Origin: Escherichia coli
GTDB lineage: Bacteria; Pseudomonadota; Gammaproteobacteria; Enterobacterales; Enterobacteriaceae
Reading direction: 5' to 3' (one strand)
DNA length: 64,000 nucleotides
NCBI RefSeq assembly: GCF_030384885.1
Contig: NZ_CP128613.1
This document shows, piece by piece, positions 2,478 to 21,260 of this stretch (positions are counted from its first letter, which is position 1; every line of letters starts with the position of its first letter). A program made the position numbers and the translations under genes. A model generated the notes under the pieces. The model was not told where the DNA came from and did not search any database. It saw only the letters and a list, made by a program, of their open reading frames with translations.

Positions 2478-3164
2478 TTACTTCTGCCCGTAATAGGCGT
2501 TGGGACCGTGCTTACGCATGAAGTGTTTATTCATGAGATAGCTGTCGATGTGATTCAGTTGCGGGTTAATGCCGCGGGCAATCCACGCCATTTTCGCCAC
2601 TTCTTCCATCACCACCGCGTTATGCACCGCATCGTGAGCATCTTTCCCCCAGGCGAATGGCCCGTGCTGATACACCACAATTCCCGGCGTATGCAGCGGC
2701 TCGGCGTCACCCAGCGTTTCGATAATCACTTTGCCAGTGTTTAGCTCGTATTCCCCCTGCACTTCTTCTTCGCTTAACCCGCGCGTACACGGGATATCGC
2801 CAAAGAAGTAGTCAGCGTGCGTGGTGCCTAATGCCGGGATCGCCAGCCCCGCCTGCGCCCATGCGGTGGCATGCGTGGAATGGGTATGGACAATGCCGCC
2901 AAGCGACGGATAACGACGGTAGAGTTCAAGATGCGTCGCAGTGTCGGAAGACGGACGATACTCCCCTTCCACCACCTTGCCACTCATATCAACCACCACC
3001 ATATCGTTCGCTTTCATGCTTTCGTAGGCAATGCCGCTGGGCTTGATCACCACCAGCCCGCGTTCGCGGTCAATGGCGCTGACGTTACCCCAGGTAAAGG
3101 TCACCAGCCCGTAGCGCGGCAGATCCATATTGGCTTCAAATACCTGCTGTTTTAGCTTTTGCAT
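2478..3164 (-). CDS. ulaF: L-ribulose-5-phosphate 4-epimerase
   Basis: 228-aa ORF, class II aldolase/epimerase; last gene of ulaABCDEF. Confidence 0.95.
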
Positions 3165-4018
3165 TATGCCGCCTCCACCATGCCGGCTTTAGCCATGCGC
3201 GCTTTCACCCAATCACGCGCTTTCGCCACTTCTGCCGCCGGGTCTTCCGCCGTTTCGCTCCACATCTCAATCAGGTACGGCCCGCAATAACCACTCTGTT
3301 TGAGCGTTTCGAAGCAACGTTCGAAATCCACTACACCTTCGCCAAACGGCACGTTTTTGAAGACGCCTGGTTTAGTGTCTTTCACATGCACCGCAACGAT
3401 GTGCCCGATTCCGGCCTGCAACTCCATCTGCACGTCGTTGTCCCACGCCGACAAGTTGCCGATATCCGGGTAGAGCTGGAACCACGGGTTGTTAAGATAG
3501 TGCGCGTAACCCAGCGCCTTGCTGATGGAGTTCATCAACGGGTAATCCATGATCTCCATTGCCAGCGTCACCTGCGCGCGGCTCGCCATCTCAACGCTCT
3601 CTTTCAGGCCGTCACGGAAACGACGACGCGTTTCGTTATTGGCTTCCTGATAGTAAACGTCGTAGCCCGCCAGTTGGATCACGCGAATACCGACATCCTG
3701 GGCGAACTGGATAGCTTTGCGCATAATCTCCAGCCCCTGCGCCCGCACTGCGTCATCTTCGCTGCCCAGCGGGAAACGGCGATGAGCAGAAAGGCACATG
3801 GACGGCACGCGCACGCCGGTTTCAACAATCGCGTTCACCAGCGCCAGACGCTGCTCGCGGCTCCAGTCAAGGCGCGAGAGGCGATCGTCCGTTTCATCTA
3901 CCGACATCTCGACAAAATCGAAGCCTAACGTTTTTGCCAGTTGCAGCCGTTCCAGCCAGCACTCCCCGGTGGGGAGCGCTTTTTCGTAGATGCCAAGCGG
4001 GATTTGTTTGGACAACAT
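3164..4018 (-). CDS. ulaE: L-ribulose-5-phosphate 3-epimerase
   Basis: 284-aa ORF; start overlaps ulaF region, operon order. Confidence 0.95.
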
Positions 4019-4027
4019 ATCCGCTCC

Positions 4028-4678
4028 TTAGCCCCACAGCTCGGCGATGGAACGTTTGAACTGACGCGCGGCTTCAACCGGAGAAGCGGCATCACGGATA
4101 CTACGCCCCGCGATAAACACATGAATCGGAATGCCTTTGAACAGCGGCAGGTCTTCCAGCGCCAGGCCACCGGTGACGGTGACTTTGAAGCCCATATCGG
4201 AAAGACGTTTGATCGCGGTGATATCCGCTTCGCCCCACGCCACGCCTGCGGCCTGCGCGTCACGGCTGCGGTGATAAACCACCTGCTGGATACCTGCGTC
4301 GCGCCACTGCTGCGCCTGTTCCCAGGTCCAGTAACCGGTCAGTTCGATCTGCACGTCGCCATTAAACTCTTTTGCCACGTCCAGCGCGCCTTTGGCGGTG
4401 TTGATATCTGCACAACAAATCACGGTCACCCAGTCAGCGTTGGCTTCAAAGCACATACGAGAAAGGATTTTGCCCGCATCGGCGATTTTGGCGTCTGCCA
4501 GCACGATTTTGTGCGGATAAAGCGCTTTCAGATCGCGAACCGCACGCACACCTTCGCCCACGCACAGAATGGTGCCCACTTCGATAATGTCGACTTCTTC
4601 GGCAATCAGGCGAGTAGTTTCGTAGGCGCTAGCCATAGTCTGGTTGTCCAGCGCGACTTGCAACATCGGTAATGACAT
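4028..4678 (-). CDS. ulaD: 3-keto-L-gulonate-6-phosphate decarboxylase
   Basis: 216 aa from [12 protein letters not shown]...; track ORF (267 aa) is an upstream in-frame extension into ulaC. Confidence 0.93.
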
Positions 4679-4691
4679 TTTCAATTCCTTC

Positions 4692-5156
4692 TTAAGCAGC
4701 CGCGTTGGTGCGGTCAATGAGATCCAGGACTTCCTGCTCAGTACGGCAGGCGCGTAAACGGTCGAAATTCTCTTCATCTTCAAACAGGTTGACGATCTGC
4801 ATGATGCCCACTTCCTGATGCGTGTTGGCATCGACCGCCGCCATCGTGATGAGGATATCCACCGGGTCGTTATCTTCGTGGTTGAACTCCAGCGGCTTTT
4901 TCAGCGTCACCAGTGCAAAACCGGTTTTCTTAACGCCCTCTTCCGGGCGACCATGCGGCATTGCCAGGCCCGGTGCGAGCACAAAGTACGGGCCGTGTTG
5001 TTCAACCGCATCCAGAATCGCCTGGTAGTAACGCGGCTCTACCACATCTGCCGCCACCAGCAGGTCAACGCCGATTTTCACTGCGTCCTGCCATGTCTCA
5101 ACTTCAGCCTGCAGACGGATAGATTTATTCTCCGCCAGCGAATCACGTAATTTCAT
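4692..5156 (-). CDS. ulaC: Ascorbate-specific PTS enzyme IIA
   Basis: 154-aa ORF. Confidence 0.95.
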
Positions 5157-5165
5157 AGCGCGCCC

Positions 5166-5471
5166 TTACTTCACGTCCTGCGGGAAATGTTCTTTGATCA
5201 CTTCCAGCAGTTTCGGGCCAAAATCGGCAGGAGAGAGCATGTTGCGCACGCCAACCACGTATTTATTGCCGGTCACGGTTATTTCGCCCGCGATGTGCGT
5301 AGAAGCGATGATGATATCCGCGCCGCTCAACTCGCTTTTGTATTCACCAACCGCGCAGCTGTTTACCGTGTGGTCGATGTTCGACTGGGTTAAAAACTGG
5401 TCCACTTTCATTTTCATGATCATGGAACTGCCTTGTCCGTTACCACACACAGCCAGAATACGTACGGTCAT
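5166..5471 (-). CDS. ulaB: Ascorbate-specific PTS enzyme IIB
   Basis: 101 aa from [16 protein letters not shown]...; track ORF has 2 extra N-terminal codons. Confidence 0.93.
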
Positions 5472-5486
5472 AATCAAAACTCCTTA

Positions 5487-7238
<1,752 letters not shown>

Positions 7239-8303
7239 ATGAGTAAAGTGAAAAGTATCACCCGTGAATCCTGGATCCTGAGCACTTTCCCGGAGTGGGG
7301 TAGCTGGTTGAATGAAGAAATTGAACAAGAACAGGTAGCTCCTGGCACATTCGCGATGTGGTGGCTAGGCTGCACCGGGATCTGGCTGAAATCTGAAGGA
7401 GGCACCAACGTTTGCGTCGATTTCTGGTGTGGTACTGGCAAACAAAGTCACGGTAACCCACTAATGAAACAGGGTCACCAGATGCAGCGCATGGCTGGCG
7501 TGAAAAAACTGCAACCGAACCTGCGTACCACCCCATTTGTTCTTGATCCGTTTGCGATTCGCCAGATCGACGCGGTACTGGCAACTCACGATCACAACGA
7601 TCATATCGACGTCAACGTCGCTGCTGCCGTGATGCAGAACTGCGCTGATGACGTGCCATTTATCGGGCCGAAAACCTGCGTGGATTTGTGGATTGGCTGG
7701 GGTGTGCCGAAAGAACGTTGCATCGTGGTCAAACCGGGCGATGTCGTTAAAGTGAAAGACATTGAAATTCATGCCCTTGACGCGTTTGACCGTACTGCAC
7801 TGATCACTTTGCCTGCCGATCAAAAAGCGGCTGGCGTACTGCCAGACGGCATGGACGATCGCGCGGTAAACTACCTGTTCAAAACGCCGGGCGGTACCCT
7901 GTATCACAGTGGCGATTCCCACTACTCTAACTACTATGCGAAGCACGGTAACGAGCATCAGATCGACGTGGCATTAGGTTCATACGGTGAAAACCCACGT
8001 GGTATCACCGACAAAATGACCAGTGCTGATATCCTGCGTATGGCAGAAGCGCTGAATACAAAAGTGGTTATCCCGTTCCACCACGACATCTGGTCAAACT
8101 TCCAGGCCGATCCGCAAGAGATCCGCGTACTGTGGGAGATGAAAAAAGATCGCCTGAAGTATGGCTTCAAGCCGTTTATCTGGCAGGTCGGTGGCAAATT
8201 TACCTGGCCGCTGGATAAAGACAATTTCGAGTACCACTATCCACGTGGTTTTGACGATTGCTTCACCATTGAACCGGATCTGCCGTTCAAGTCGTTCCTG
8301 TAA
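7239..8303 (+). CDS. ulaG: L-ascorbate-6-phosphate lactonase (metallo-beta-lactamase fold)
   Basis: 354 aa from [12 protein letters not shown]...; HxHxDH motif (ATHDHNDH). Confidence 0.95.
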
Positions 8304-8410
8304 TCTGTCGTTTATACCGGATGGCGTGGAGAAGTTCGCGCTATCCGGCGTAGTATTTCCTGGCTATTTCAAATATCATCTAAAAAAATCAAATTTTATC
8401 GGAATAGCTC

Positions 8411-9166
8411 ATGACTGAAGCACAAAGACATCAAATTCTCCTGGAAATGCTCGCACAATTGGGCTTTGTGACCGTTGAGAAAGTCGTTGAGCGTCTGGGA
8501 ATTTCGCCTGCTACCGCTCGACGCGATATCAATAAACTTGACGAAAGCGGCAAACTGAAAAAAGTGCGCAATGGCGCAGAAGCCATTACCCAGCAGCGCC
8601 CACGCTGGACGCCGATGAATCTGCATCAGGCGCAGAACCATGATGAAAAAGTACGTATCGCTAAAGCAGCCTCGCAGCTGGTTAATCCGGGCGAAAGCGT
8701 CGTCATCAACTGCGGTTCCACCGCGTTTCTGCTTGGGCGGGAAATGTGTGGCAAGCCAGTGCAAATCATTACTAATTATCTACCGCTGGCGAATTACCTG
8801 ATCGATCAGGAGCATGACAGCGTGATTATCATGGGCGGCCAATACAACAAAAGCCAGTCCATCACCTTAAGTCCACAGGGCAGCGAAAACAGTCTCTATG
8901 CCGGGCACTGGATGTTTACCAGCGGCAAAGGACTGACCGCAGAAGGGTTGTATAAAACCGATATGCTGACGGCAATGGCAGAGCAGAAGATGTTGAGCGT
9001 GGTAGGGAAACTGGTGGTACTGGTTGATAGCAGTAAGATCGGCGAACGTGCGGGGATGCTCTTTAGTCGTGCAGATCAAATCGATATGCTGATCACCGGC
9101 AAAAATGCTAACCCGGAAATCCTGCAACAACTGGAAGCGCAAGGGGTCAGCATTCTGCGTGTTTAA
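8411..9166 (+). CDS. ulaR: DeoR-family repressor of the ula regulon
   Basis: 251-aa ORF with N-terminal HTH and sugar-phosphate-binding domain. Confidence 0.95.
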
Positions 9167-9912
9167 AGATGCTGCTGGAAAAATGTCACGGCAGCATCTA
9201 ATGCCTCAGGCGTAATGCGGTGACGCACGCCTGGCTGCCATGAACAGGTTAGCAGTTTATCCCGTCCCGTCTCGATTAAGGCCTGCTGCAAACGTAGTGA
9301 TTCGTCGGCAGGCACGACGTCATCGTCAAGGCCATGCCACAGCAGTAGAGGTCTGTCACCAAGTTGTTCCAGATGGTTTGTCGCTTCCCACTCTGCCAGC
9401 GGCGCGACAATGTTATTGAATTCATTCTGCTGTGCTGCCGTTTCAGGTATCAGCGGTGGAAACAGTGAACGGGCGAGCGATGTAAAATAGCCCGATCCCA
9501 TCATGCTGGCGGTACATTTCACCGTGGGGTGGCGAGCGGTAATTCCCAGTGCCGTCATCGCGCCCATCGACGCGCCACCGACTGCCAGACGGTCAGCAAG
9601 CAGCCAGTTTTCTTCGGCTATTGCCGCACGTAAGGTAGTGAATTCCTGCATACTTTGTAGCAAAATTTGCCAAAATTGATATAACCGCCGCGCTGCGTCG
9701 CCCCTAAAACGGCTACCGTGATCGGGCGCATCCGGCATGATCACCCGCAAACCAGCCTGCGCCAGCGCAACGGCAAAATAGCTATACACCAGACTGGACG
9801 AAGTAAAGCCGTGATAAAAAATCACGCACGGTAACGGGGTATCTTTTTGCCCGACAGGATAAGCATGAAGAACGGGAATATCTGCCAGCACGCGCGAGTC
9901 TATTTCAATCAT
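9163..9912 (-). CDS. yjfP: Alpha/beta-hydrolase esterase
   Basis: 249-aa ORF; GGASMG nucleophile-elbow-like motif; convergent with ulaR, 4-nt overlap. Confidence 0.9.
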
Positions 9913-10093
9913 CTGTCTCTCCTTTTTGTCTGGTATGACATGAAGAAATCCTTAGCACAAGTTTCTGCTGGCGGTATTAGTTCATAATGTTGAGATGTGG
10001 GTTACGCTTTCGTCACGTTTTCATTCGAAAATCGCGTACCAGGTAACAATTCGGGAACATTCCCCCAAAGTTAAATTAATAAGGCACTACACT

Positions 10094-10423
10094 ATGGTTA
10101 GCAGGAAACGTAATAGCGTTATTTACCGGTTTGCCAGTTTATTATTGGTGTTGATGTTAAGTGCCTGTAGCGCACTGCAAGGTACGCCACAGCCAGCACC
10201 GCCAGTAACGGACCATCCGCAAGAGATTCGCCGCGACCAGACGCAAGGGTTACAGCGAATAGGTAGCGTAAGCACGATGGTTCGGGGTTCTCCGGATGAC
10301 GCATTAGCAGAAATCAGAGCGAAAGCTGTCGCTGCAAAAGCTGATTATTACGTTGTCGTCATGGTGGACGAAACCATCGTGACAGGACAGTGGTATTCAC
10401 AAGCTATTTTATACCGTAAATAA
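10094..10423 (+). CDS. bsmA: Biofilm/stress lipoprotein, DUF1471 family
   Basis: 109 aa from MVSRKRNSVIYRF...; lipobox LSAC; track ORF has a 33-codon upstream extension. Confidence 0.88.
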   Translation: MVSRKRNSVIYRFASLLLVLMLSACSALQGTPQPAPPVTDHPQEIRRDQTQGLQRIGSVSTMVRGSPDDALAEIRAKAVAAKADYYVVVMVDETIVTGQWYSQAILYRK

Positions 10424-10571
10424 ATCAGACAACTTATACAGCCAGCTTTACATTGCTTTGCGTCCCTATGCGTTTACCTGTGCACAATAAATTACCAGCT
10501 GGAAGCTCGGGCGTTTATTACCGCGATGGAATGCCCTGCAACATGTGGGGAAACGAAAAATGGAGCTGATG

Positions 10572-10847
10572 ATGAAACAATTACTTGCCTCACCCTCACT
10601 GCAATTAGTGACTTATCCTGCGAGCACCACGGCACAGTCTGCAGAATTCGCCAGTGCTGACTGCGTGACGGGCCTGAATGAAATAGGTCAGATCTCGGTT
10701 AGCAATATTTCAGGGGATCCGCAGGACGTGGAACGTATCGTGGCGTTAAAGGCCGATGAACAAGGTGCGTCATGGTACCGCATTATTACCATGTATGAAG
10801 ACCAGCAGCCTGATAACTGGCGTGTACAGGCGATACTGTATGCGTGA
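10572..10847 (+). CDS. yjfN: DUF1471 family small periplasmic protein
   Basis: 91 aa from MKQLLASPSLQL...; alternative upstream starts exist in frame (track ORF from 10545). Confidence 0.85.
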   Translation: MKQLLASPSLQLVTYPASTTAQSAEFASADCVTGLNEIGQISVSNISGDPQDVERIVALKADEQGASWYRIITMYEDQQPDNWRVQAILYA

Positions 10848-10849
10848 GT

Positions 10850-10905
10850 GTCATCCGCAGCAAATGAACAATGCCGGATGCGACACCTGTGCCTTATCCG
10901 GCCAA
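10850..10905. repeat. REP (repetitive extragenic palindromic) element
   Basis: gccggatgcgacac...gccttatccggcc imperfect palindrome, typical enterobacterial REP; between convergent yjfN and aidB. Confidence 0.6.
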
Positions 10906-10996
10906 CAGTTCCTGAAATTTCATTGTGTTAGTTGATAACACGTAATGCTGCTGTTGCCATTATAAGACGCGCTAGCATCACATCTGGCTGACTCGT

Positions 10997-12622
10997 TTAT
11001 AAACATACTCCCCCCGTCGCCCGCAGCAATAAATCATTCTGGATCTGCTCTGACAACCGCACGCCGCCGCGCGTATCAAACATCATCTGACACCACGCCT
11101 GCGCCATTGGCGGAGAGGCATATTTCAACATTTGCGCGCCGCAACCCAGCAGGAATAGCTGACGAGTAATCTCTCGCCCCATTTCTTCAGCTGGCTTACG
11201 CAGTTGCTGCTGCAAACGACGAACCGCGCGATCAAAATAGCGATCCTGCCCTTTCACTTCCATAAACGCTTCCGACAGTAAGTCGTATACACCCGCCTGC
11301 TTATTAAGAACGCGCAATACATCCAGGCACATAATATTGCCAGAACCTTCCCAGATGCTGTTCACCGGCATTTCCCTGTAAAGCCGCGGCAGCTCGCTCT
11401 CCTCGCAATAACCAATACCGCCCAGCACCTCCATCGCTTCGGCCACAAACGGCATACCACGTTTGCAGATAACCAATTTCGCCGCAGGCGTAAATAAACG
11501 CGCCCACAGGGCTTCTTTGGCATCGGCACGCCGGTCCCACGCTCGCGCAAGACGAAACAGCAACGCCGTTTGACCTTCAAGCTGAAGTGCCATGCGACTT
11601 AAGACATGACGCATAAGGGGTTGTTGGATCAATGGATTACCAAAAACATGGCGTTGATGGGCATGATAAATCGCCAGCGAAAATGCACGGCGCATCATGG
11701 CATGGCTACCCAGGGCGCAATCAAAACGCGTCATCCCACCCATTTTCAGGATCAGACGAACTCCTTCCCCTTCCTGCCCCAACAACCAGCCAATGGCATC
11801 CTGAAACTCCACTTCGCCGCTGGCGTTAGAGCGATTACCCAGCTTATCTTTCAGCCGCTCGAGGCGAATCGCGTTGCGTTGCCCGTCAGGCAAAAAGCGC
11901 GGCACAAAAAAGCAGGACAAACCGCCAGTGGTCTGCGCCAGTACCAGATGCGCATCGCTTTGTGGCACCGAGAAAAACCATTTATGCCCCACCAGCCGAT
12001 AAGAGCCATCGTCCAGACGCTCTGCGCGGGTAGTGTTGCTCATCACATCGGAACCGCCCTGCTTTTCCGTCATGCCCATGCCAATCAACAAACCGCGTTT
12101 TTGCCCACCTGGCAATAAGTGGGAATCGTAGCGATCGCTCAACAGCGGCGTGGTCCAGTCCTGAAACGGCGCGGGTAACATCTGTAACAGCAATGGCGTG
12201 GCGGCAAAGGTCATGGTTATCGGACATAACGACCCTGCCTCAACCTGTGCGTGCAACATAAAACGCGCCGCTCGCGCCACAAATGCGCCGGAGCGAGCGT
12301 CTTCTTCCCAGGCCAGATTGTGTACCCGATTGGTACATAACGCCTGCATCAGCAGGTGCCAGGCGGGGTGAAAACGCACATCGTCCAGACGGCGTCCTTG
12401 CGCATCGTAGCGCAATAATTCGGGCGGATTCACATTCGCCAGTCGCCCCAGTTCAAGGGATTCAGCCGTTCCTAACTGCTGACCAATACTGGCGAGAAAA
12501 TCGCTATCCCAGCCAGCACCTTCACGCGTTACCGCTTCGCAGAGCGCGCCATCAGACAGGTATAAGTTGCTGTTATTTAATGGTATAGGTTGATTAAAAA
12601 CGGTGTGAGTTTGCCAGTGCAC
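10997..12622 (-). CDS. aidB: Acyl-CoA dehydrogenase-family adaptive-response protein AidB
   Basis: 541 aa beginning at GTG (..VHWQTHTVFNQP); track ORF starts 6 codons further upstream. Confidence 0.93.
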   Translation of the reverse strand: MHWQTHTVFNQPIPLNNSNLYLSDGALCEAVTREGAGWDSDFLASIGQQLGTAESLELGRLANVNPPELLRYDAQGRRLDDVRFHPAWHLLMQALCTNRVHNLAWEEDARSGAFVARAARFMLHAQVEAGSLCPITMTFAATPLLLQMLPAPFQDWTTPLLSDRYDSHLLPGGQKRGLLIGMGMTEKQGGSDVMSNTTRAERLDDGSYRLVGHKWFFSVPQSDAHLVLAQTTGGLSCFFVPRFLPDGQRNAIRLERLKDKLGNRSNASGEVEFQDAIGWLLGQEGEGVRLILKMGGMTRFDCALGSHAMMRRAFSLAIYHAHQRHVFGNPLIQQPLMRHVLSRMALQLEGQTALLFRLARAWDRRADAKEALWARLFTPAAKLVICKRGMPFVAEAMEVLGGIGYCEESELPRLYREMPVNSIWEGSGNIMCLDVLRVLNKQAGVYDLLSEAFMEVKGQDRYFDRAVRRLQQQLRKPAEEMGREITRQLFLLGCGAQMLKYASPPMAQAWCQMMFDTRGGVRLSEQIQNDLLLRATGGVCL

Positions 12623-12705
12623 TGTGTCTCCCTCCATCAATGGCAGTCACCATTAGTATGGTCACTGCCACGGATTCCTGACAGAAAGAGATTGCTAAAA
12701 CATTC

Positions 12706-13869
12706 TTAGCCAGCAATATAATGCGGAACGAAACGTGAGGTGTCTTTGGTGATCAGCGTGTTATCTTCACGGATCCCCATTCCGCACGCTTCATCATCGA
12801 CAATCCAGCTACCAATGAGTGTGTAGCTATCGCCAAACCGTGGTAGAGGTTGAAATGCCTGGTAGATCATCGGTTCATCGGCGTAATCACCCTCAGCGTG
12901 GTCAACGACGTTATTCTGACCATCGAAAATGGTGACGTTACCGCCCTCGCGTGAGTAGATCGGTTTACGCACATAGCTTTCGCCAGCGGCAATCTGCGGT
13001 TTTTCGCCATCAAACCAGGATGCAAGTAGGTTAGGATGACCAGGAAAGAAGCGCCAAAGCAGCGGCATTAACCCTTTGTTGCTCAAGATACTTTTCCATA
13101 ACGGCTCCACCCATTGCTCGCGGCGCTTGCGCAGCAGCGGACCGTTATCGTCACGCATCATCCATTCCAGCGGATACAGCTTAAATGCACGCTGGATGAC
13201 ATTATCATCAAGATCGGTCAGTACACCGCCGACGCCCAAACCGAGATCTTCAATGTAGATAAACCGTGACTCCTGCCCAGCCTGCTGAGCGCAGTCCTGC
13301 AAGTACAGCACAGTACTCCTGTCTTCGTCGGTATCCTGACAACAGCAGAAATAAAACGGTTCCCGACTGTAAAGCTCGCTAAAACGCGAAATCAGGCGTT
13401 CCTGAATGGCATTGTACTGATCGGCATCACGCGGAATAATGCCGCTACGCCGCGCATCTTCCAGCCACAGCCACTGGAAATAAGCCGATTCATACAACGA
13501 GGTTGGCGTATCGGCGTTGTACTCCAGCAGCTTCACCGGCGCATTGCCACACCAGGCAAAATCCATCCGACCATACAGCGAAGGATCGCGTGCGCGCCAG
13601 CTTTCAGCGATCACATCCCAGTACAGCGGTGGGATCGCCAGTTGCGTCAGGATCTCTTCGTCTTGAACCGCACGATCCACCACCTCAAGGCACATCTGAT
13701 GCAGTTCCGCAGTTGGTTTTTCGATCTGCTCTTCTATCTGACGCAGAGTAAAGCGGTAAGCCCGACTCTCATCCCAATAGATTTCATTGTCGATGATATG
13801 AAAGTCGAAACCGTTGTCGGCGGCGATCTGGTCCAGATCCCGTCGTACAGGAACGTTGTGTCTCAGCAT
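12706..13869 (-). CDS. yjfC: Glutathionylspermidine synthase-family (ATP-grasp) protein
   Basis: 387-aa ORF; last gene of yjfKLMC. Confidence 0.9.
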   Translation of the reverse strand: MLRHNVPVRRDLDQIAADNGFDFHIIDNEIYWDESRAYRFTLRQIEEQIEKPTAELHQMCLEVVDRAVQDEEILTQLAIPPLYWDVIAESWRARDPSLYGRMDFAWCGNAPVKLLEYNADTPTSLYESAYFQWLWLEDARRSGIIPRDADQYNAIQERLISRFSELYSREPFYFCCCQDTDEDRSTVLYLQDCAQQAGQESRFIYIEDLGLGVGGVLTDLDDNVIQRAFKLYPLEWMMRDDNGPLLRKRREQWVEPLWKSILSNKGLMPLLWRFFPGHPNLLASWFDGEKPQIAAGESYVRKPIYSREGGNVTIFDGQNNVVDHAEGDYADEPMIYQAFQPLPRFGDSYTLIGSWIVDDEACGMGIREDNTLITKDTSRFVPHYIAG

Positions 13870-13871
13870 GA

Positions 13872-14510
13872 TTAGCCTCCCCAGTGCCCACGGGCGCTGG
13901 AAGAACGACCATAGCCGCCGCGAGAAACAGTTGACGCTTTTCTGGTGGTAAAGCCGCCCGAGGAGTAAGACTCTTTTTTGCCAGAACCGGAGCGCCAGGA
14001 GTAATCACCGGAAGTATTGCGCCAGACGGGGCGGGAAGCAAATGAGGATCCACCGCTGTTATAAACGAACGGCTCATCGCGATCTTTACGAATAACCCGG
14101 CTTAATAAAAATCCAGAAATGACCGGGATCCAACTCTGTTCAACATTGTCGTAGTAGCAATTTTCGTACTTAGACTGACAATTCTGCTGAGTCATATTCT
14201 TCGGAACATCGGCATAAAATGCCGCTTTGGCATTGTTCCAGCCATGAGCACAGATATCTGAATTATTACCGTCATCAATACAATCCTGCACTGTCGAGTA
14301 AAACGTTCCGTCACCGTCGTTATCGACATCACCACTATCGCCACAACCTTTCAATACAAAAAAAGCTGCACCGCCCATTAGCGCCAACGTTAAGTATTTT
14401 TGTGCGTAGCGATTGCGTCGCGGCTCAAAAGGATTATTAGGTCTTCCAATGCGACTGATCGCTCCGTGACCAATTTTACTGTTATTTCTTGATTTGCGTT
14501 TTCTGGCCAT
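13872..14510 (-). CDS. yjfM: DUF1190 protein with Gly/Ser-rich C-terminal tail
   Basis: 212-aa ORF. Confidence 0.88.
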   Translation of the reverse strand: MARKRKSRNNSKIGHGAISRIGRPNNPFEPRRNRYAQKYLTLALMGGAAFFVLKGCGDSGDVDNDGDGTFYSTVQDCIDDGNNSDICAHGWNNAKAAFYADVPKNMTQQNCQSKYENCYYDNVEQSWIPVISGFLLSRVIRKDRDEPFVYNSGGSSFASRPVWRNTSGDYSWRSGSGKKESYSSGGFTTRKASTVSRGGYGRSSSARGHWGG

Positions 14511-14519
14511 GATCGTCCA

Positions 14520-14918
14520 TTACCATGTCATACAAGCTGCGTTAAAAATACCGCCAGCCAGCGCGGCGGTTCCCATAAACATTCCTGCTGCGGTATTGTG
14601 ATTAATAATTTTTTCGCTTAATGCTGGCATATAAAGTCTGACGCCAGCAAAAACGAGTAACTGAATCACCAGTGCGATCCCGCCCCAGGCAAAATAATCC
14701 GGAATACTCACCGCATTGATTGCCGCACTAGATAATGGGATCACGTAACCCAACAATGTACCACTGAACGCCAGTGCCGCCGCGGTATTATTGTTTTTAA
14801 TTAACTGCCATTCGTTGTGTGGTGTAATTTTGGAGTAGATAAACAGAAAAATAATCACCATAGCCACGCCAATAAAAAAATAGGCGCTAAAGGCAAGAAG
14901 TGAATCCAGTATATGCAT
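14520..14918 (-). CDS. yjfL: DUF350 inner-membrane protein
   Basis: 132-aa hydrophobic ORF. Confidence 0.88.
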   Translation of the reverse strand: MHILDSLLAFSAYFFIGVAMVIIFLFIYSKITPHNEWQLIKNNNTAAALAFSGTLLGYVIPLSSAAINAVSIPDYFAWGGIALVIQLLVFAGVRLYMPALSEKIINHNTAAGMFMGTAALAGGIFNAACMTW

Positions 14919-14935
14919 CGTAAACGTCCTTGTAA

Positions 14936-15595
14936 TTAACCAATAATATGAAGTGATGTCAGTGGGATATCAACACCCAGTGCGCGCGAAAATAACCACT
15001 CCGGCTCGCCGAGATCGTTAAAAGATTCCTCACCATTTAACAGCAAATATTCACAGGTATCTTCGGTCACCTGCCGTTCATAGCCCATGGTAAAATTATG
15101 CACTTCCCATTTGGCGTGGTTTTGATTTTCAACTTTTTCCAGCATATAGACGGGTTCGATATTTCCCGGTTCTTCACTGTTAAAAAATCGCTGCCAGCGT
15201 TTTTCCTGCCAGTTTAATGTCATTGCCCCCATCGCTTTGGCGTTGATCGCTTCGCGCCAGTGGCTCTCTTTGCTGATACCGTAGCTCTCTTCATAGACAA
15301 AGAGCTTTATATCATCAATGTCATCAATATCTTCGCCGCCGGTGGTATTGATTTGCAGAAATTCATCGCCCGAAGTGTAGTAGCGGAAAATCTGACTACC
15401 GCCGCCCAGATCGATGTGGCTGACAGCGGCTACCGTAAATTCTTCACCCGGCAGCGCAATCAGCAATTCATCTTCCAGCAAACGAAACGCTAACGTGTCG
15501 AGCGTAAAGCCGCTATTGAGATGAAGTCCCAGTGGGCCACGTGCGATTGCAGGTTTATCATCCTTACCAAACAGACGCTTGAAAAAACTTGTCAT
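14936..15595 (-). CDS. yjfK: DUF2491 protein
   Basis: 219-aa ORF; start codon overlaps stop of the upstream RCK-like ORF (ATGA). Confidence 0.9.
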   Translation of the reverse strand: MTSFFKRLFGKDDKPAIARGPLGLHLNSGFTLDTLAFRLLEDELLIALPGEEFTVAAVSHIDLGGGSQIFRYYTSGDEFLQINTTGGEDIDDIDDIKLFVYEESYGISKESHWREAINAKAMGAMTLNWQEKRWQRFFNSEEPGNIEPVYMLEKVENQNHAKWEVHNFTMGYERQVTEDTCEYLLLNGEESFNDLGEPEWLFSRALGVDIPLTSLHIIG

Positions 15596-16347
15596 ATGCT
15601 TCCCTCAATGTCCTGCCATGCCACTTCTTCAGCCAAAATACGGTTATTGCCAATAAGATGCAGCCACATACCGCCTTTAACTTCCGTTGCAATGACTGGA
15701 TTCAGTTCCATTCCCCTACCATTTTTACAACTGCTTATTCCCAGGACGGTGGCATCATGATGAAGTTTCATATAATGCATCAATGCGCCATAACGCATTG
15801 AGGTAACCCGTTCAGGAATCGGTAAAACAAACCCCGTATCCCCCAGCATTGGATTCATAATCGATGCCACTGATTGAGATGAACCGGGATCTTGTATTGA
15901 ACGGGAAAGTTGTTCTGCTGAAATATTTCGCACTATTTCAATACGTTGACAATGAACCTCTAATAAACGAGCGTAGCGTTCATCTTCCAGATAAGCGACG
16001 ATATGGCATCTTTCAGGAATAAAATCCGCCAGGGATAGTGCGGTCGTGAACGTCTGCTCATCTGTTTGCGAAAAGATGATGACACTTTGGCAATTTGCCA
16101 GTCCCATGCGGGTATGTTCATGCGGATCATTAAAATTACTAATACGAATGAAATCGACCCAATTATTTCCAGGCATCGGATGTTGAATATCATCCCGCTC
16201 ACACAAAAGTACCCGGCCAAATGCTCTTCGGGAATCAAACAACAATAATGAAATCATCTTTTCAGTCTGATGCCCGCGCCATCCAATGACCAGCATATGG
16301 TTGCGCAAATTGCTGTAGTCGCCCATTCCCGTCATTCCTTTCGCCAA
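15592..16347 (-). CDS. RCK/TrkA-N-like cytoplasmic regulatory domain protein, apparent C-terminal half of a Kch/MthK-type K+ channel; start ambiguous (TTG at 16347, ATG at 16335 or 16326)
   Basis: N-terminus HMLVIGWRGHQTEKMISLL fits the Rossmann beta1-Gly-loop-alphaA pattern of RCK/CASTOR-type domains; ORF is in the same frame as the pore ORF, 2 codons after its TAA. AAGGA lies 9 nt before the ATG at 16326. Not a gene I recall from K-12. Confidence 0.55.
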   Translation of the reverse strand: MAKGMTGMGDYSNLRNHMLVIGWRGHQTEKMISLLLFDSRRAFGRVLLCERDDIQHPMPGNNWVDFIRISNFNDPHEHTRMGLANCQSVIIFSQTDEQTFTTALSLADFIPERCHIVAYLEDERYARLLEVHCQRIEIVRNISAEQLSRSIQDPGSSQSVASIMNPMLGDTGFVLPIPERVTSMRYGALMHYMKLHHDATVLGISSCKNGRGMELNPVIATEVKGGMWLHLIGNNRILAEEVAWQDIEGSI

Positions 16348-16353
16348 TATGTC

Positions 16354-16662
16354 TTACACTAATGCAATGACTTTTCCCATTAAAGCGCCAAATAAACCAA
16401 CACTCACAGGAATCTGCCAGAGCGCTGTGAACAGACGTCCCCCCACCGTTTGGGGTGTGATATCACCAAACCCCAGCGTTGATCCCACAACCGAGCAGTA
16501 ATAAATAAAATTACTAAGTTGTCCTACCAACGCCTCTTCATGCAACGCAGTTAACACCAGATAACAAAACAGATACTGTCCTGTAAATAATCCAGTCAAT
16601 GCCGGCCAGGTAAGCCTGGAAAGGTGACGTCGGCAGGTTTTAATGATCCATGAGAAGAACAT
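16354..16662 (-). CDS. Two-TM K+-channel-like pore subunit (TM1, pore helix, TLGFGD filter, TM2), apparent N-terminal half of an interrupted channel gene
   Basis: 102-aa ORF: TM1 PALTGLFTGQYLFCYLVLTAL, pore helix and filter NFIYYCSVVGSTLGFGDITP, TM2 GGRLFTALWQIPVSVGLFGALMGKVIALV; ends at TAA directly after TM2. ATG overlaps yjfJ stop by 1 nt. Confidence 0.6.
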   Translation of the reverse strand: MFFSWIIKTCRRHLSRLTWPALTGLFTGQYLFCYLVLTALHEEALVGQLSNFIYYCSVVGSTLGFGDITPQTVGGRLFTALWQIPVSVGLFGALMGKVIALV

Positions 16663-17360
16663 TACTCGCCCTGTTGGCGTTGCAGTCTTGCTAATACATC
16701 CTGGGCGCTACTTTTGTTGCTACCGCCAATTCCGGCTTCCGCCAGTTTTTCATCAAGATCGCGACCATCTGCCACTTTTTCCAGCTGTACGGCAGCATCC
16801 AGGCGAGCTTGACGTTCGGCCTGACGCGTTTGCAGACGCTTTAAGGATTCTGCCGCTGTCGAAACGCTGGAAGATGCGCCAACAGTAGAGGTCGTTACGG
16901 CCTGTTGTGCACGCTGCATGGCTTCAGTAGCTTTAACGACTTCCATTTGTTGCTCAAACTGAGCGATACGCTGCGCTGTCGCTGTAACTGCTTTTTCCAC
17001 GCCATCACGAGAGACTTCCAGATTCGACAACACTTGCTCTTCAGCGGTAATAAGATTCTCAAGGCGCGCGATTTCTTCAGCAACTTCGTTAATCAACGAC
17101 GGATTAACGTTCTTGCTTAACGCTTCCAGCGCACGAGCTTCCAGACTGGCTTTGCGCTCACGTAAATCTTTCAGCTTATCGTGACTTAATTTCACCCGCG
17201 CCAGCAGATCAACGCGAGATTTTCCGGCTTTATCGAGTTCAGCTTTAGCGTCACGAATATGCTGTTCCAGCATGCGCACACCCTGGGTTTCTTCAATGGA
17301 TTCTTCCGCCTGAGAGATAAACGATTTCCCCAGCGTAAATAAACTTTTTAAAATTCCCAT
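16662..17360 (-). CDS. yjfJ: PspA/IM30-family coiled-coil protein
   Basis: 232-aa ORF MGILKSLFTLGKSFISQAEE..., PspA-like. Confidence 0.92.
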   Translation of the reverse strand: MGILKSLFTLGKSFISQAEESIEETQGVRMLEQHIRDAKAELDKAGKSRVDLLARVKLSHDKLKDLRERKASLEARALEALSKNVNPSLINEVAEEIARLENLITAEEQVLSNLEVSRDGVEKAVTATAQRIAQFEQQMEVVKATEAMQRAQQAVTTSTVGASSSVSTAAESLKRLQTRQAERQARLDAAVQLEKVADGRDLDEKLAEAGIGGSNKSSAQDVLARLQRQQGE

Positions 17361-17378
17361 AAATACCTGTCCTTGTAA

Positions 17379-17780
17379 TTAGTGTGAATATTCTTCTGTA
17401 ATTTCAGCAAGATCCAAAGCGTTATCTACCAGCGTGGTTATTTCCAGCAGGATATCTTCAAGAGAAGATTTAAGCGATAACGCCCCGAAAACAATGTAAT
17501 ACTCTTCCTGTTGCACGCTGGAGATCCCTACCGATGACAACGGCATCATCTTCTGATTTCTTAATAAGAAGGTATTAAATTCATCTGGATTGCAGATACT
17601 ACTTACCGGACAAATAAAGGTTTCGATAATCATTTGGCGGGAAGTAAAAAGAATATTGATTTGCAAATCGCCATAATCATTCATTTTAATAATTAATGCG
17701 TTTTCATTATTTGTTATATCAATATTTTGTTCAGGTATAGTTTGCAGCGCCGTCGCCAGCGCCAACGGATTCCATGTCAT
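17379..17780 (-). CDS. yjfI: DUF2170 protein
   Basis: 133-aa ORF. Confidence 0.9.
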   Translation of the reverse strand: MTWNPLALATALQTIPEQNIDITNNENALIIKMNDYGDLQINILFTSRQMIIETFICPVSSICNPDEFNTFLLRNQKMMPLSSVGISSVQQEEYYIVFGALSLKSSLEDILLEITTLVDNALDLAEITEEYSH

Positions 17781-17860
17781 ATATTATTCCATAGTGATTA
17801 AGTTGAAATATTAATAATATAAATATTTGTAGCACGTAATTATCTTACCAGCTCCAGACA

Positions 17861-17892
17861 AAAAAAAACCATCCAAATATGGATGGTTTTTC
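17861..17892 (-). terminator. Intrinsic terminator downstream of rlmB
   Basis: Hairpin ccatcc-aaatat-ggatgg flanked by A9 and T5 runs; terminates the nsrR-rnr-rlmB transcript. Confidence 0.7.
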
Positions 17893-17906
17893 ATAATTCA
17901 GAGAAA

Positions 17907-18638
17907 TTAGCTACGCTGGCGTACCGCTTCAAATAAGCAAATGCCGGTCGCTACCGAAACGTTCAGGGAAGAAACGCTTCCTGCCATGGGGATGCTGATC
18001 AACTCATCGCAATGTTCACGAGTCAGGCGACGCATGCCTTCACCTTCTGCGCCCATAACCAGTGCCAGCCGTCCGGTCATTTTGCTCTGATAGAGCGTAT
18101 GATCCGCCTCTCCTGCCGTACCGACGATCCAAATATTCTCTTCCTGCAACATACGCATAGTGCGCGCCAGGTTAGTCACCCGAATCAGCGGAACGCTTTC
18201 TGCCGCGCCGCAGGCCACTTTTTTCGCCGTGGCGTTGAGCTGTGCGGAGCGATCTTTCGGCACAATCACCGCATGAACGCCTGCGGCGTCCGCGCTGCGC
18301 AGGCACGCGCCGAGGTTGTGCGGATCGGTCACACCGTCGAGGATCAGCAGGAACGGTTGTTCGAGCGAAGCGATCAGATCCGGCAGATCGTTTTCCTGAT
18401 ACTGACGTCCTGGCTTCACACGGGCGATAATGCCCTGATGCACGGCACCGTCGCTTTTCTCGTCGAGATATTGGCGGTTTGCCAGCTGGATAACCACGCC
18501 CTGGGACTCAAGGGCGTGAATCAGCGGCAACAGACGTTTATCTTCACGGCCTTTTAAAATAAAGACTTCCTGAAAACGTTCAGGGGCGCGCTCCAGCAGG
18601 GCCTGCACTGCGTGGATGCCGTAAATCATTTCGCTCAT
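17907..18638 (-). CDS. rlmB: 23S rRNA (guanosine-2'-O)-methyltransferase, SpoU family
   Basis: 243-aa ORF. Confidence 0.95.
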
Positions 18639-18662
18639 TAATGTACTCGTTGTTTACGTTTT

Positions 18663-18763
18663 GCCTGATGCGCTACGCTTATCAGGCCTACATGATCCCT
18701 GCAATGTATTGAATTTGCGTGATTATGTAGGCCGGATAAGGCGTTCACGCCGCATCCGGCATG
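18663..18763. repeat. BIME: two inverted REP elements
   Basis: gcctgatgcgctacgcttatcaggcctac (18663-18691) and gtaggccggataaggcgttcacgccgcatccggcatg (18727-18763). Confidence 0.75.
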
Positions 18764-18818
18764 AACAAAGCGCATTTTGTCAGCAATCTGACCCTCTTCT
18801 GTTTGAAGAGGGTAATGA

Positions 18819-21260
18819 TCACTCTGCCACTTTTTTCTTCGCCGCACGCTTCGCTTTGGTCGCTGCGGCTATTTTCTGCGTTTTCGCCGATGGCTTTTTC
18901 GATTTTCTCGCGTCTTTCTTCGCCGCTTTCGGCTTCGTTTTTTTCTCGCCACGGAAGGCGCTGTCTGGCTCAAAGTTTACCTTTTTACCGACCTGGCGAC
19001 GCTTGCCGCCTTTTTTGCCTGCATCGCCTTTTTTCGCTTTCTCGCGCGCGGTTTTACCGACGTTGCGCGGTGCGCGTTCGCTGGAGATCAGGCTAAAGTC
19101 GATTTTGCGCTCGTCCATATTAACCGCTTCGACGCGAACTTCCACGCGATCGCCCAGGCGATAAGTCTGGCCGCTGGATTCACCCATCAGGCGTTGTCCC
19201 ACCTGGTCAAAGCGATAGTAGTCATTGTCCAGCGAAGAGACGTGGACCAGACCATCGATGAACAAGTCATCCAGGCGAACAAAGAAGCCAAAACCAGTGA
19301 CGCTGGAAATTACGCCTTTAAAGATGTTACCTACCTGGTCGAGCATGAAGTCACACTTCAGCCAGTCAGCCACATCACGCGTTGCTTCGTCGGCACGACG
19401 TTCCGCCATCGAACAGTGCTGACCCAGTTGCAGCATCTCTTCCATCGAATAATGGTAGCCGCCGGTTTCAGTGGTATTCCCCTGATGCCCCTGCTCTTTC
19501 GCCAGCAGATACTTAATGGCGCGGTGGAGCGTCAGATCAGGATAACGACGAATCGGCGAAGTAAAGTGCGCATAGGACTGCAATGCCAGACCGAAGTGAC
19601 CGCGGTTTTCCGGATCGTAAATCGCTTGTTTCATCGAGCGCAACAGCATGGTTTGCAGCATTTCTGCGTCAGGACGGTCAGCAACCGATTCCAGCAGTTC
19701 CGCGTAGTCACGCGGTTCCGGCTTGTTACCGCCAGGCAATTCCAGCCCCAGTTCCGCCAGCACTGAACGGAAAGAGGTTATCGCTTCGGTGCTCGGCTTG
19801 TCGTGAATACGGAACAGTGCCGGTTCTTTGGCCTTCTCAACGAAACGCGCCGCCGAGATATTCGCCAGAATCATGCACTCTTCAATTAACTTGTGTGCGT
19901 CGTTACGCTGGGTCTGTTCGATACGCTCAATACGGCGTTCAGCGTTGAAAATGAACTTCGCTTCTTCGCTCTCAAACGAGATCCCGCCGCGTTCTTCACG
20001 GGCTTTATCCAGCACTTTATAGAGGTTATGCAGCTCTTCGAGATGCTTAACCAGCGGGGAGTACTGCTCGCGCAGATCCTGATCGCCCTGCAGAATATGC
20101 CAGACTTTGGTGTAGGTCAGACGCGCGTGAGAGCTCATCACCGCTTCATAGAATTTGTAGCCAGTCAGGCGGCCTTTCGACGAAACCGTCATCTCGCACA
20201 CCATACACAGGCGGTCTACCTGCGGGTTGAGCGAACACAGGCCGTTAGAGAGCACTTCCGGCAGCATCGGGATAACCTGCGAAGGGAAGTACACCGACGT
20301 ACCACGGTTACGCGCTTCTCTATCCAGCGGTGTTGGCGGACGCACATAGTAACTGACGTCGGCAATTGCGACCCACAAACGCCAGCCGCCGCCGCGTTTT
20401 TTCTCGCAGTAAACTGCATCGTCAAAGTCACGGGCGTCTTCGCCATCAATGGTGACCAGCGGTAAATCGCGCAGATCGACACGGCCAGCTTTCGCCTCTT
20501 CCGGTACTTCTTCTTTCAGCCCGGCAACCTGTTGCTCAACAGCCTGCGGCCAGATGTACGGAATTTCATGGGTACGCAGGGCGATATCAACCGCCATGCC
20601 GGTGCCCATATTATCGCCCAGCACTTCGACGATTTTACCCACCGCTTTGGTACGGCGAGTCGGGCGTTGGGTCAGTTCAACCACCACCACAAAGCCCATC
20701 CGCGCGCCCATGATCTGATCGGGCGGGATTAAAATATCGAAGCTCAGACGGCTGTCGTCAGGAACCACAAAGCCGACACCCGCTTCAGTAAAGTAGCGAC
20801 CAACAATCTGGCTGGTTTTTGGCACCAGTACGCGGACAATACGCGCTTCACGGCGGCCTTTACGGTCAGCGCCCAGCGGCTGTGCCAGCACCTGATCGCC
20901 ATGAATGCAGGTTTTCATCTGCTCGCTGGAGAGATACAAATCATCTTTACGCCCTTCAACCCGCAGAAAGCCGTAGCCATCACGGTGGCCAATAACGGTA
21001 CCTTTCACCAGGTCGAGGCGTTCCGGCAGCGCATAGCACTGACGGCGAGTAAAGACCAGTTGACCATCGCGCTCCATCGCGCGCAGGCGGCGACGCAGGC
21101 CTTCAAGCTGCTCTTCGCCTTCAATGTGCAGTTCTACCGCCAACTCATCACGGCTGGCCGGTTTTTCACGTTTGGTTAAATGTTCGAGGATAAATTCCCG
21201 ACTAGGGATGGGATTCGCGTATTTTTCAGCTTCGCGTTCCTGGAAAGGATCTTGTGACAT
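18819..21260 (-). CDS. rnr: Ribonuclease R (3'-5' exoribonuclease, Lys-rich C-terminal tail)
   Basis: 813 aa from [14 protein letters not shown]...; track ORF carries a 14-codon upstream extension. Confidence 0.95.

Follow-up and report, generated by a model that had tools for sequence, protein, structure and literature searches.

A premature stop codon between the pore and the RCK domain of an MthK-like potassium channel gene in Escherichia coli

The MthK channel of Methanobacterium thermoautotrophicum (PDB 1LNQ, 6OLY) is a Ca2+-gated K+ channel of the 2TM-RCK type. A soluble RCK protein (M107-A336) is made from an internal start at Met107, is co-expressed and co-purifies with the channel, and has been proposed to complete an octameric gating ring (PMC2573919). 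In the established model of MthK-type channels, the gating signal passes along the covalent linker that joins TM2 to the tethered RCK domain (PMC2573919, PMC6879586). TM1-P-TM2 pore modules can fold and conduct alone (PMC6879586). Spermidine and spermine block MthK from the intracellular side (PMC7335008). In E. coli Kch, mutations in the RCK domain deregulate the pore and create a "loose cannon" leak (PMC2234077). A K+ channel gene is also part of the "third group" of operons described by Ravi et al. (2024), together with genes for YjfI (DUF2170), YjfJ (PspA), DUF2491, DUF350 and DUF1190 proteins and a GSP-synthetase-like ATP-grasp protein; the DUF2170 protein YjfI is CesT/Tir-like (PMC11237479).

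An allele of such a channel gene is described here from a 64,000-nt stretch of E. coli DNA (the window), in which a single stop codon stands between the pore and the RCK domain (Table 1). The channel family is already known and annotated, and uncharacterised; the window gene is its E. coli member. No functional study of the channel was found in full-text literature searches. An older review mentions an extra "2TM-RCK type K+ channel" in S. typhimurium (PMC2234077), possibly this same gene. New here are the exact mutation, together with a near-isogenic relative in which the gene is intact, the finding that few E. coli carry the gene, and the sequence evidence for an MthK-like internal start.

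Table 1. Features of the channel locus and the differences from E. coli 2013C-4282, in window coordinates
Feature	Position	Strand	Remarks
yjfI	17379-17780	minus	DUF2170; first operon gene
yjfJ	16662-17360	minus	PspA/IM30 family; immediately upstream of the channel gene, 1-nt overlap with its start
Whole channel gene	15592-16662	minus	1071 nt, one in-frame TAA here; 356-aa 2TM pore + RCK protein where intact (WP_000466338.1)
Pore-fragment ORF	16354-16662	minus	ATG-initiated, 102 aa + premature stop; N-terminal helix, TM1, pore helix, filter, TM2
Selectivity-filter codons T62-L-G-F-G-D67	16462-16479	minus	ACG CTG GGG TTT GGT GAT
Premature stop TAA, codon 103	16354-16356	minus	Mutated base 16356 (A on plus strand, G in reference); ancestral codon CAA (Gln)
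Shine-Dalgarno-like AAAGGA (codons K108-G109)	16336-16341	minus	9 nt upstream of codon 113
RCK-like half, possible separate product	15592-16326	minus	244 aa, Met113 to normal stop; stop overlaps yjfK start (ATGA)
Acidic motif Y-L-E-D-E-R-Y	15975-15995		Codons 224-230
yjfK	14936-15595	minus	DUF2491
yjfL	14520-14918	minus	DUF350
yjfM	13872-14510	minus	DUF1190
yjfC	12706-13869	minus	Glutathionylspermidine-synthase-like
Difference 1	8225		ulaG SNP, synonymous
Difference 2	16356		Nonsense SNP in channel gene
Difference 3	50307-50313		A7 (window) vs A8 run, 18 nt upstream of blc start
Difference 4	60013		aspA codon 201, GGT Gly in window vs GCT Ala in reference

The pore fragment and the stop codon

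The 102-aa ORF (MFFSW...STLGFGDITPQTVGGRLFTALWQIPVSVGLFGALMGKVIALV) ends directly after TM2, the second hydrophobic helix (...GLFGALMGKVIALV-stop), and contains the signature filter T-x-G-[YF]-G-D in the form TLGFGD at residues 62-67. Both features had been read from the DNA in the original prediction and were confirmed by in-frame translation. When the stop codon is repaired, residues 42-103 match Pfam Ion_trans_2 in a profile search (E 1.7e-10). The 102-aa fragment alone matches PDB pore domains of K2P, TOK1, NaK and BK channels (E down to 2e-7), pore chains of 92-97 aa being included among these matches. The two sets of matches identify the 102-aa ORF as a genuine K+ channel pore rather than one that arose by chance. 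In an alignment of 24 family sequences, the filter residues G64, F65, G66 and D67 never vary, T62 shows at least 90% conservation, and L, I, V or T stands at position 63. The matches and the invariant GFGD thus bear out the prediction that the ORF encodes the pore of a 2TM K+ channel whose filter is of the GFG type. Helices span residues 19-39, 49-66 and 73-112 in the AlphaFold2 (AF2) monomer model. We infer K+ selectivity and the oligomeric state of the channel: by analogy with MthK, the intact protein would be a tetramer gated by a cytoplasmic RCK ring.

Downstream of the pore ORF, an RCK-like ORF continues in the same frame to position 15592, with a single TAA between the two (...KVIALV*DILAKGMTGMGDYSNLRNHMLVIGWRGHQ...). 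In the nearest genome, E. coli 2013C-4282, codon 103 is CAA (Gln103). The change to TAA, a C to T transition at gene nt 307, is the sole difference in the gene (1070/1071 nt identical), and over the whole 64 kb (NZ_CP027579.1, 3009999-3073998) only four positions differ. With so few differences from an intact relative, the stop is a derived point mutation of very recent origin. In the 24-sequence alignment, Q103 is at least 90% conserved; where DNA was available, the codon is CAA or CAG in 13 of 14 orthologs and CGA in one. The stop is thus premature and in frame relative to both the nearest relative and the orthologs, and it is derived and rare. Because the orthologs are single-chain proteins, the nearest genome has CAA and the truncated allele is rare, the division into pore and RCK parts is attributed to a recent nonsense mutation. 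The 102-aa ORF is very probably the N-terminal fragment of a derived nonsense allele (Q103*) of an MthK-like pore+RCK gene.

The encoded pore does lack a cytoplasmic domain, as had been predicted, with the TAA at codon 103 and the RCK-like domain following it; the idea of a "stop-repaired fusion" was exactly right, one frame being interrupted by a single TAA. What did not stand is the view that the locus is built to make a "pore-only subunit": pore and RCK form one polypeptide in every ortholog examined, and codon 103, TAA in the window, is CAA in the nearest genome. An annotation should treat the locus as a single gene that has been disrupted (a pseudogene or a nonsense allele) instead of a novel pore-only subunit with a separate RCK gene beside it.

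A sequencing or assembly error in a gene that is actually intact in the source organism would also appear as a single-base difference from the closest genome. The same TAA, however, is present in five independent SRA assemblies (SRR35948513, SRR34489103, SRR35967224, SRR34938331 and SRR30938853), on contigs of 1.3-7 kb whose gene DNA is identical to that of the window; four of the five contigs are 100% identical to the window throughout and the fifth has two mismatches, both outside the gene. An error was rejected on this ground and is close to impossible. The TAA allele is real, rare and carried by a circulating E. coli clone: the identical intact protein occurs on at least 1000 contigs and the truncated product on seven, six of which reach the stop codon. 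It could also be argued that the ORF represents a stand-alone pore-only K+ channel family of the KcsA/Kcv kind that adjoins an RCK gene by chance, small pore-only channels such as Kcv being found in nature. Against this, no homologue is natively ~100 aa long: the 24 aligned orthologs all have 350-362 aa, none ends after TM2, and only one E. coli clone has the 102-aa form. Furthermore, the exact 102-aa product falls in the same 90%-identity cluster as the 356-aa proteins, and the two ORFs share one frame. A native pore-only family was rejected and has next to no chance of being correct.

One metagenome contig (ENA ERZ27234138 k141_5369, 495-800) ends exactly at channel codon 102, at the polymorphic C/T site. 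It merely ends there and was not counted as evidence for truncation; as a speculation, its end is possibly an assembly-graph break caused by both alleles being mixed in the sample.

Orthologs, operon and distribution

The 1071-nt gene was found by megablast in only 18 of 5,426 complete E. coli genomes. Six of the 18 carriers were inspected, and in all six the gene is an intact single CDS of 356 aa, named "potassium channel family protein" (WP_000466338.1 and close variants) and free of a pseudogene flag. Differences between the intact E. coli alleles lie mostly at synonymous sites, which indicates that the intact gene is under purifying selection. Homologues with 56-87% identity are present in Salmonella enterica (a cluster of 1,960 sequences), Citrobacter, Enterobacter, Atlantibacter, Buttiauxella, Scandinavium, Dryocola and "Serratia" microhaemolytica; the full-length ones all have 355-362 aa, with pore and RCK in one chain. 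More than 100 columns are invariant in the 24-sequence family alignment. A scan of GTDB representative genomes added copies from Citrobacter, Enterobacter, Atlantibacter and "Serratia" microhaemolytica; matches in Nitrosomonas, which showed the pore-helix and filter pattern only, were disregarded. Thus, a second, MthK-like K+ channel exists in ~0.3% of complete E. coli genomes, yet is widespread in other Enterobacteriaceae.

Disrupted copies are also found elsewhere. A Citrobacter-like sequence (P0040) has a frameshift near residue 258 and one from Enterobacter hormaechei (P0045) is truncated near residue 188; the shorter ortholog entries examined are frameshifted, truncated or partial sequences. 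These independent disruptions point to recurrent decay of the channel gene and, taken together with its absence from most E. coli, suggest that it is often dispensable. A further disrupted copy (P0044) has an altered tail after about residue 287.

The operon lies between rlmB and aidB in the order yjfI-yjfJ-channel-yjfK-yjfL-yjfM-yjfC, and the same order is found in Salmonella, Atlantibacter, Enterobacter and Buttiauxella. The channel gene is located between yjfJ and yjfK in all genomes examined that have the operon. The gene order in the window and in six other loci (L001 of E. coli 2013C-4282, L004, L014, L016, L018 and L019) matches the published CesT/Tir-PspA-polyamine operon set. The channel ATG shares one base with the yjfJ stop (TAATG); the channel is translationally nested in a PspA-family operon that also codes for a glutathionylspermidine-synthase-like ligase. 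A promoter and terminator scan of positions 12500-18000 detected nothing beyond chance inside the channel gene, and the rlmB terminator (17863-17892) was the only terminator that the scan found. The channel being co-operonic with the yjfC ligase, it is conceivable, by analogy with the polyamine block of MthK, that polyamine chemistry is linked to block or gating of this channel. In Scandinavium sp. the ortholog (L020, 1740-2828; 56% identity) has an MFS transporter gene on one side and aidB on the other, and is accompanied by none of yjfI, yjfJ, yjfK, yjfL, yjfM or yjfC; the link between the channel and the PspA-family operon is thus not a strict one.

In 5,356 of the 5,374 E. coli genomes that match the region, what lies between yjfJ and yjfK is instead an unrelated 50-bp spacer containing a hairpin. 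In a typical example (L012, 1000-1049), the hairpin is GCCAGCC...GGCTGGC and yjfK has a separate Shine-Dalgarno (SD) sequence. Comparison of the 50-bp spacer of typical E. coli with the channel gene showed no similarity. The possibility that the spacer is a deletion scar of the channel gene was rejected: it is unrelated, it contains a hairpin and it provides its own SD. The N-terminus of YjfK also differs, reading MSGFFQRLFG in E. coli versions without the channel and MTSFFKRLFG in those with it. Over positions 3160-21260 (ula-yjf-rnr), the window is 3-7% divergent from the typical E. coli 2013C-3252, and over the adjacent nsrR to hflX segment 1-2%. The channel-bearing locus is thus part of a haplotype of unusual divergence, which may represent an ancient polymorphism or may have been imported from a divergent lineage of Escherichia.

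A candidate internal start and the truncated allele

The gene caller of the public assemblies calls the downstream 244-aa ORF from Met113. Codon 113 was compared in the DNA of 14 orthologs from seven genera. It is ATG in 11 of them and TTG, with no other Leu codon, in the three Atlantibacter sequences; AAAGG followed by ATG or TTG at codon 113 is present in all 14. The residues K108-G109 are encoded by AAA/AAG-GGA in 12 of the 14, and the other invariant Gly columns use mixed codons. In E. coli the duplex with the anti-SD has an energy of -5.6 kcal/mol, the best of the in-frame NTG codons of the gene. This value is similar to those of the yjfK and yjfL starts; the energies span -3.9 to -5.6 kcal/mol across the orthologs, and within each gene the site is placed only among the top 10-19% of positions. 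As the SD-like motif overlies the invariant residues K108-G109, constraint at the protein level could explain part of its conservation. In the phmmer alignment, Met110 and Met113 flank the position of MthK Met107. The pattern is suggestive of a conserved, MthK-like internal start at codon 113, and the RCK half of the window allele may still be made on its own. In the intact gene, such a start would probably supply extra soluble RCK subunits for the gating ring. The RCK half of the Q103* allele shows no further decay, as expected for a very young mutation, an observation that is uninformative either way.

The intact protein has a 2TM pore with the filter T-[LIVT]-G-F-G-D, followed by the RCK domain with its C-terminal subdomain. 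The covalent RCK that follows TM2 in the intact orthologs is absent from the pore ORF of the window; the stop falls at the TM2/linker boundary and cuts the pore from the RCK domain. At most, the clone would produce an untethered pore (1-102) and a free RCK protein (113-356), the latter from codon 113, 27 nt past the stop, through re-initiation or internal initiation, and ligand gating would no longer be transmitted to the pore. Since the ring is thought to act on the pore via the covalent linker, the likeliest outcome would be that regulated channel function is lost, leaving a young pseudogene or a low-activity ungated pore and not a constitutive leak. We consider it likely that the Q103* allele has lost function, rather than encoding a leaky or a working split channel. 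The clone with the stop occurs in several samples, so the allele is tolerated at the least, and may be neutral or indeed beneficial.

A constitutively leaky bare pore had been raised in the original prediction; uncontrolled K+ flux through it would clamp the membrane potential towards E_K and give a K+-sensitive or selectable phenotype. The fragment ends with V102, which aligns by phmmer with MthK residue 98, and this we take to be about where the crystallised pore-only constructs of MthK end. In E. coli Kch, gain-of-function RCK-domain mutations produce a leak that inhibits growth in a K+-specific manner (PMC2234077). Selection would be expected to remove a toxic leak, yet the clone has been seen in at least five samples, and a leaky pore appears improbable. 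To the same small degree one may credit a functional split channel, in which a tetramer of the 102-aa pore and a soluble RCK ring started at Met113 would assemble non-covalently and still gate. It would draw on the conserved SD-like motif and start codon, positioned 27 nt after the stop and with an anti-SD energy like that of the real starts of the operon, on the free RCK subunits that the MthK ring naturally uses (PMC2573919), and on the persistence of the allele in several samples. However, in the established model MthK-type gating passes through the covalent TM2-RCK linker (PMC2573919, PMC6879586), all 24 aligned orthologs are single chains with no split form among them, and the allele is extremely young, with 0-4 differences per 64 kb from its intact relative. 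Barely more probable than either is that the internal start at codon 113 still yields free RCK protein, that the 102-aa pore tetramerises, and that the Q103* clone carries a natural "uncoupled" channel, either an ungated low-activity pore or one reassembled non-covalently, which is retained for altered membrane potential or K+ handling. If true, it would be a ready-made natural experiment on the function of the PspA-family and polyamine envelope-stress operon. Loss of function is the preferred reading, and the Q103* clone and the intact, near-isogenic 2013C-4282 make a convenient pair for probing the role of the channel.

Comparison with MthK and other K+ channels

The RCK part is seen only weakly by Pfam (TrkA_N, E 0.039, a partial match) and an NCBIfam search gave no specific family name for the intact protein, so structure prediction and a fold search were needed. 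The AF2 model built from the alignment (mean pLDDT 74) has a beta-alpha-beta Rossmann-like core after TM2. Its best Foldseek match in the PDB is full-length MthK (6OLY; E 1.5e-12, 316 columns); next come Slo1/BK channels and the isolated MthK RCK domain. A phmmer search of PDB sequences aligned residues 6-300 of the query to MthK 4-285 (E 1.4e-7).

MthK and the intact protein have the same architecture and length: a short N-terminal helix, a 2TM pore, a linker of ~18 residues, an RCK domain and a C-terminal subdomain. The identity is only 16-19%, and the filter is TLGFGD here and TVGYGD in MthK. D184, E210 and E212 of MthK are, we assume, Ca2+-binding residues. The position of D184 is occupied here by Phe197, and for this reason the ligand of the channel may not be Ca2+. 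E226 and E228, which show little or no variation, align by phmmer with E210 and E212. They are part of the acidic motif Y-L-E-D-E-R-Y, itself (nearly) invariant and aligned with A-E210-A-E212-R-Y of MthK, and this motif hints at a ligand site of the divalent-cation or polyamine type.

Kch, the other RCK-regulated K+ channel in E. coli, is encoded at a different locus and has 6TM plus RCK, as against 2TM here. The protein was rejected as a Kch ortholog, with 34.4 bits against a cut-off of 425 for NCBIfam NF007828. The pore-only constructs of MthK and the NaK, KcsA and Kcv channels are engineered or native, whereas the 102-aa product is a mutational truncation; it is likewise a TM1-P-TM2 module. 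The locus belongs to the MthK-type family by descent. It differs from MthK in that the channel gene is embedded in a PspA-family and polyamine-ligase operon, and in that a stop codon separates the pore from the RCK domain in the window allele.
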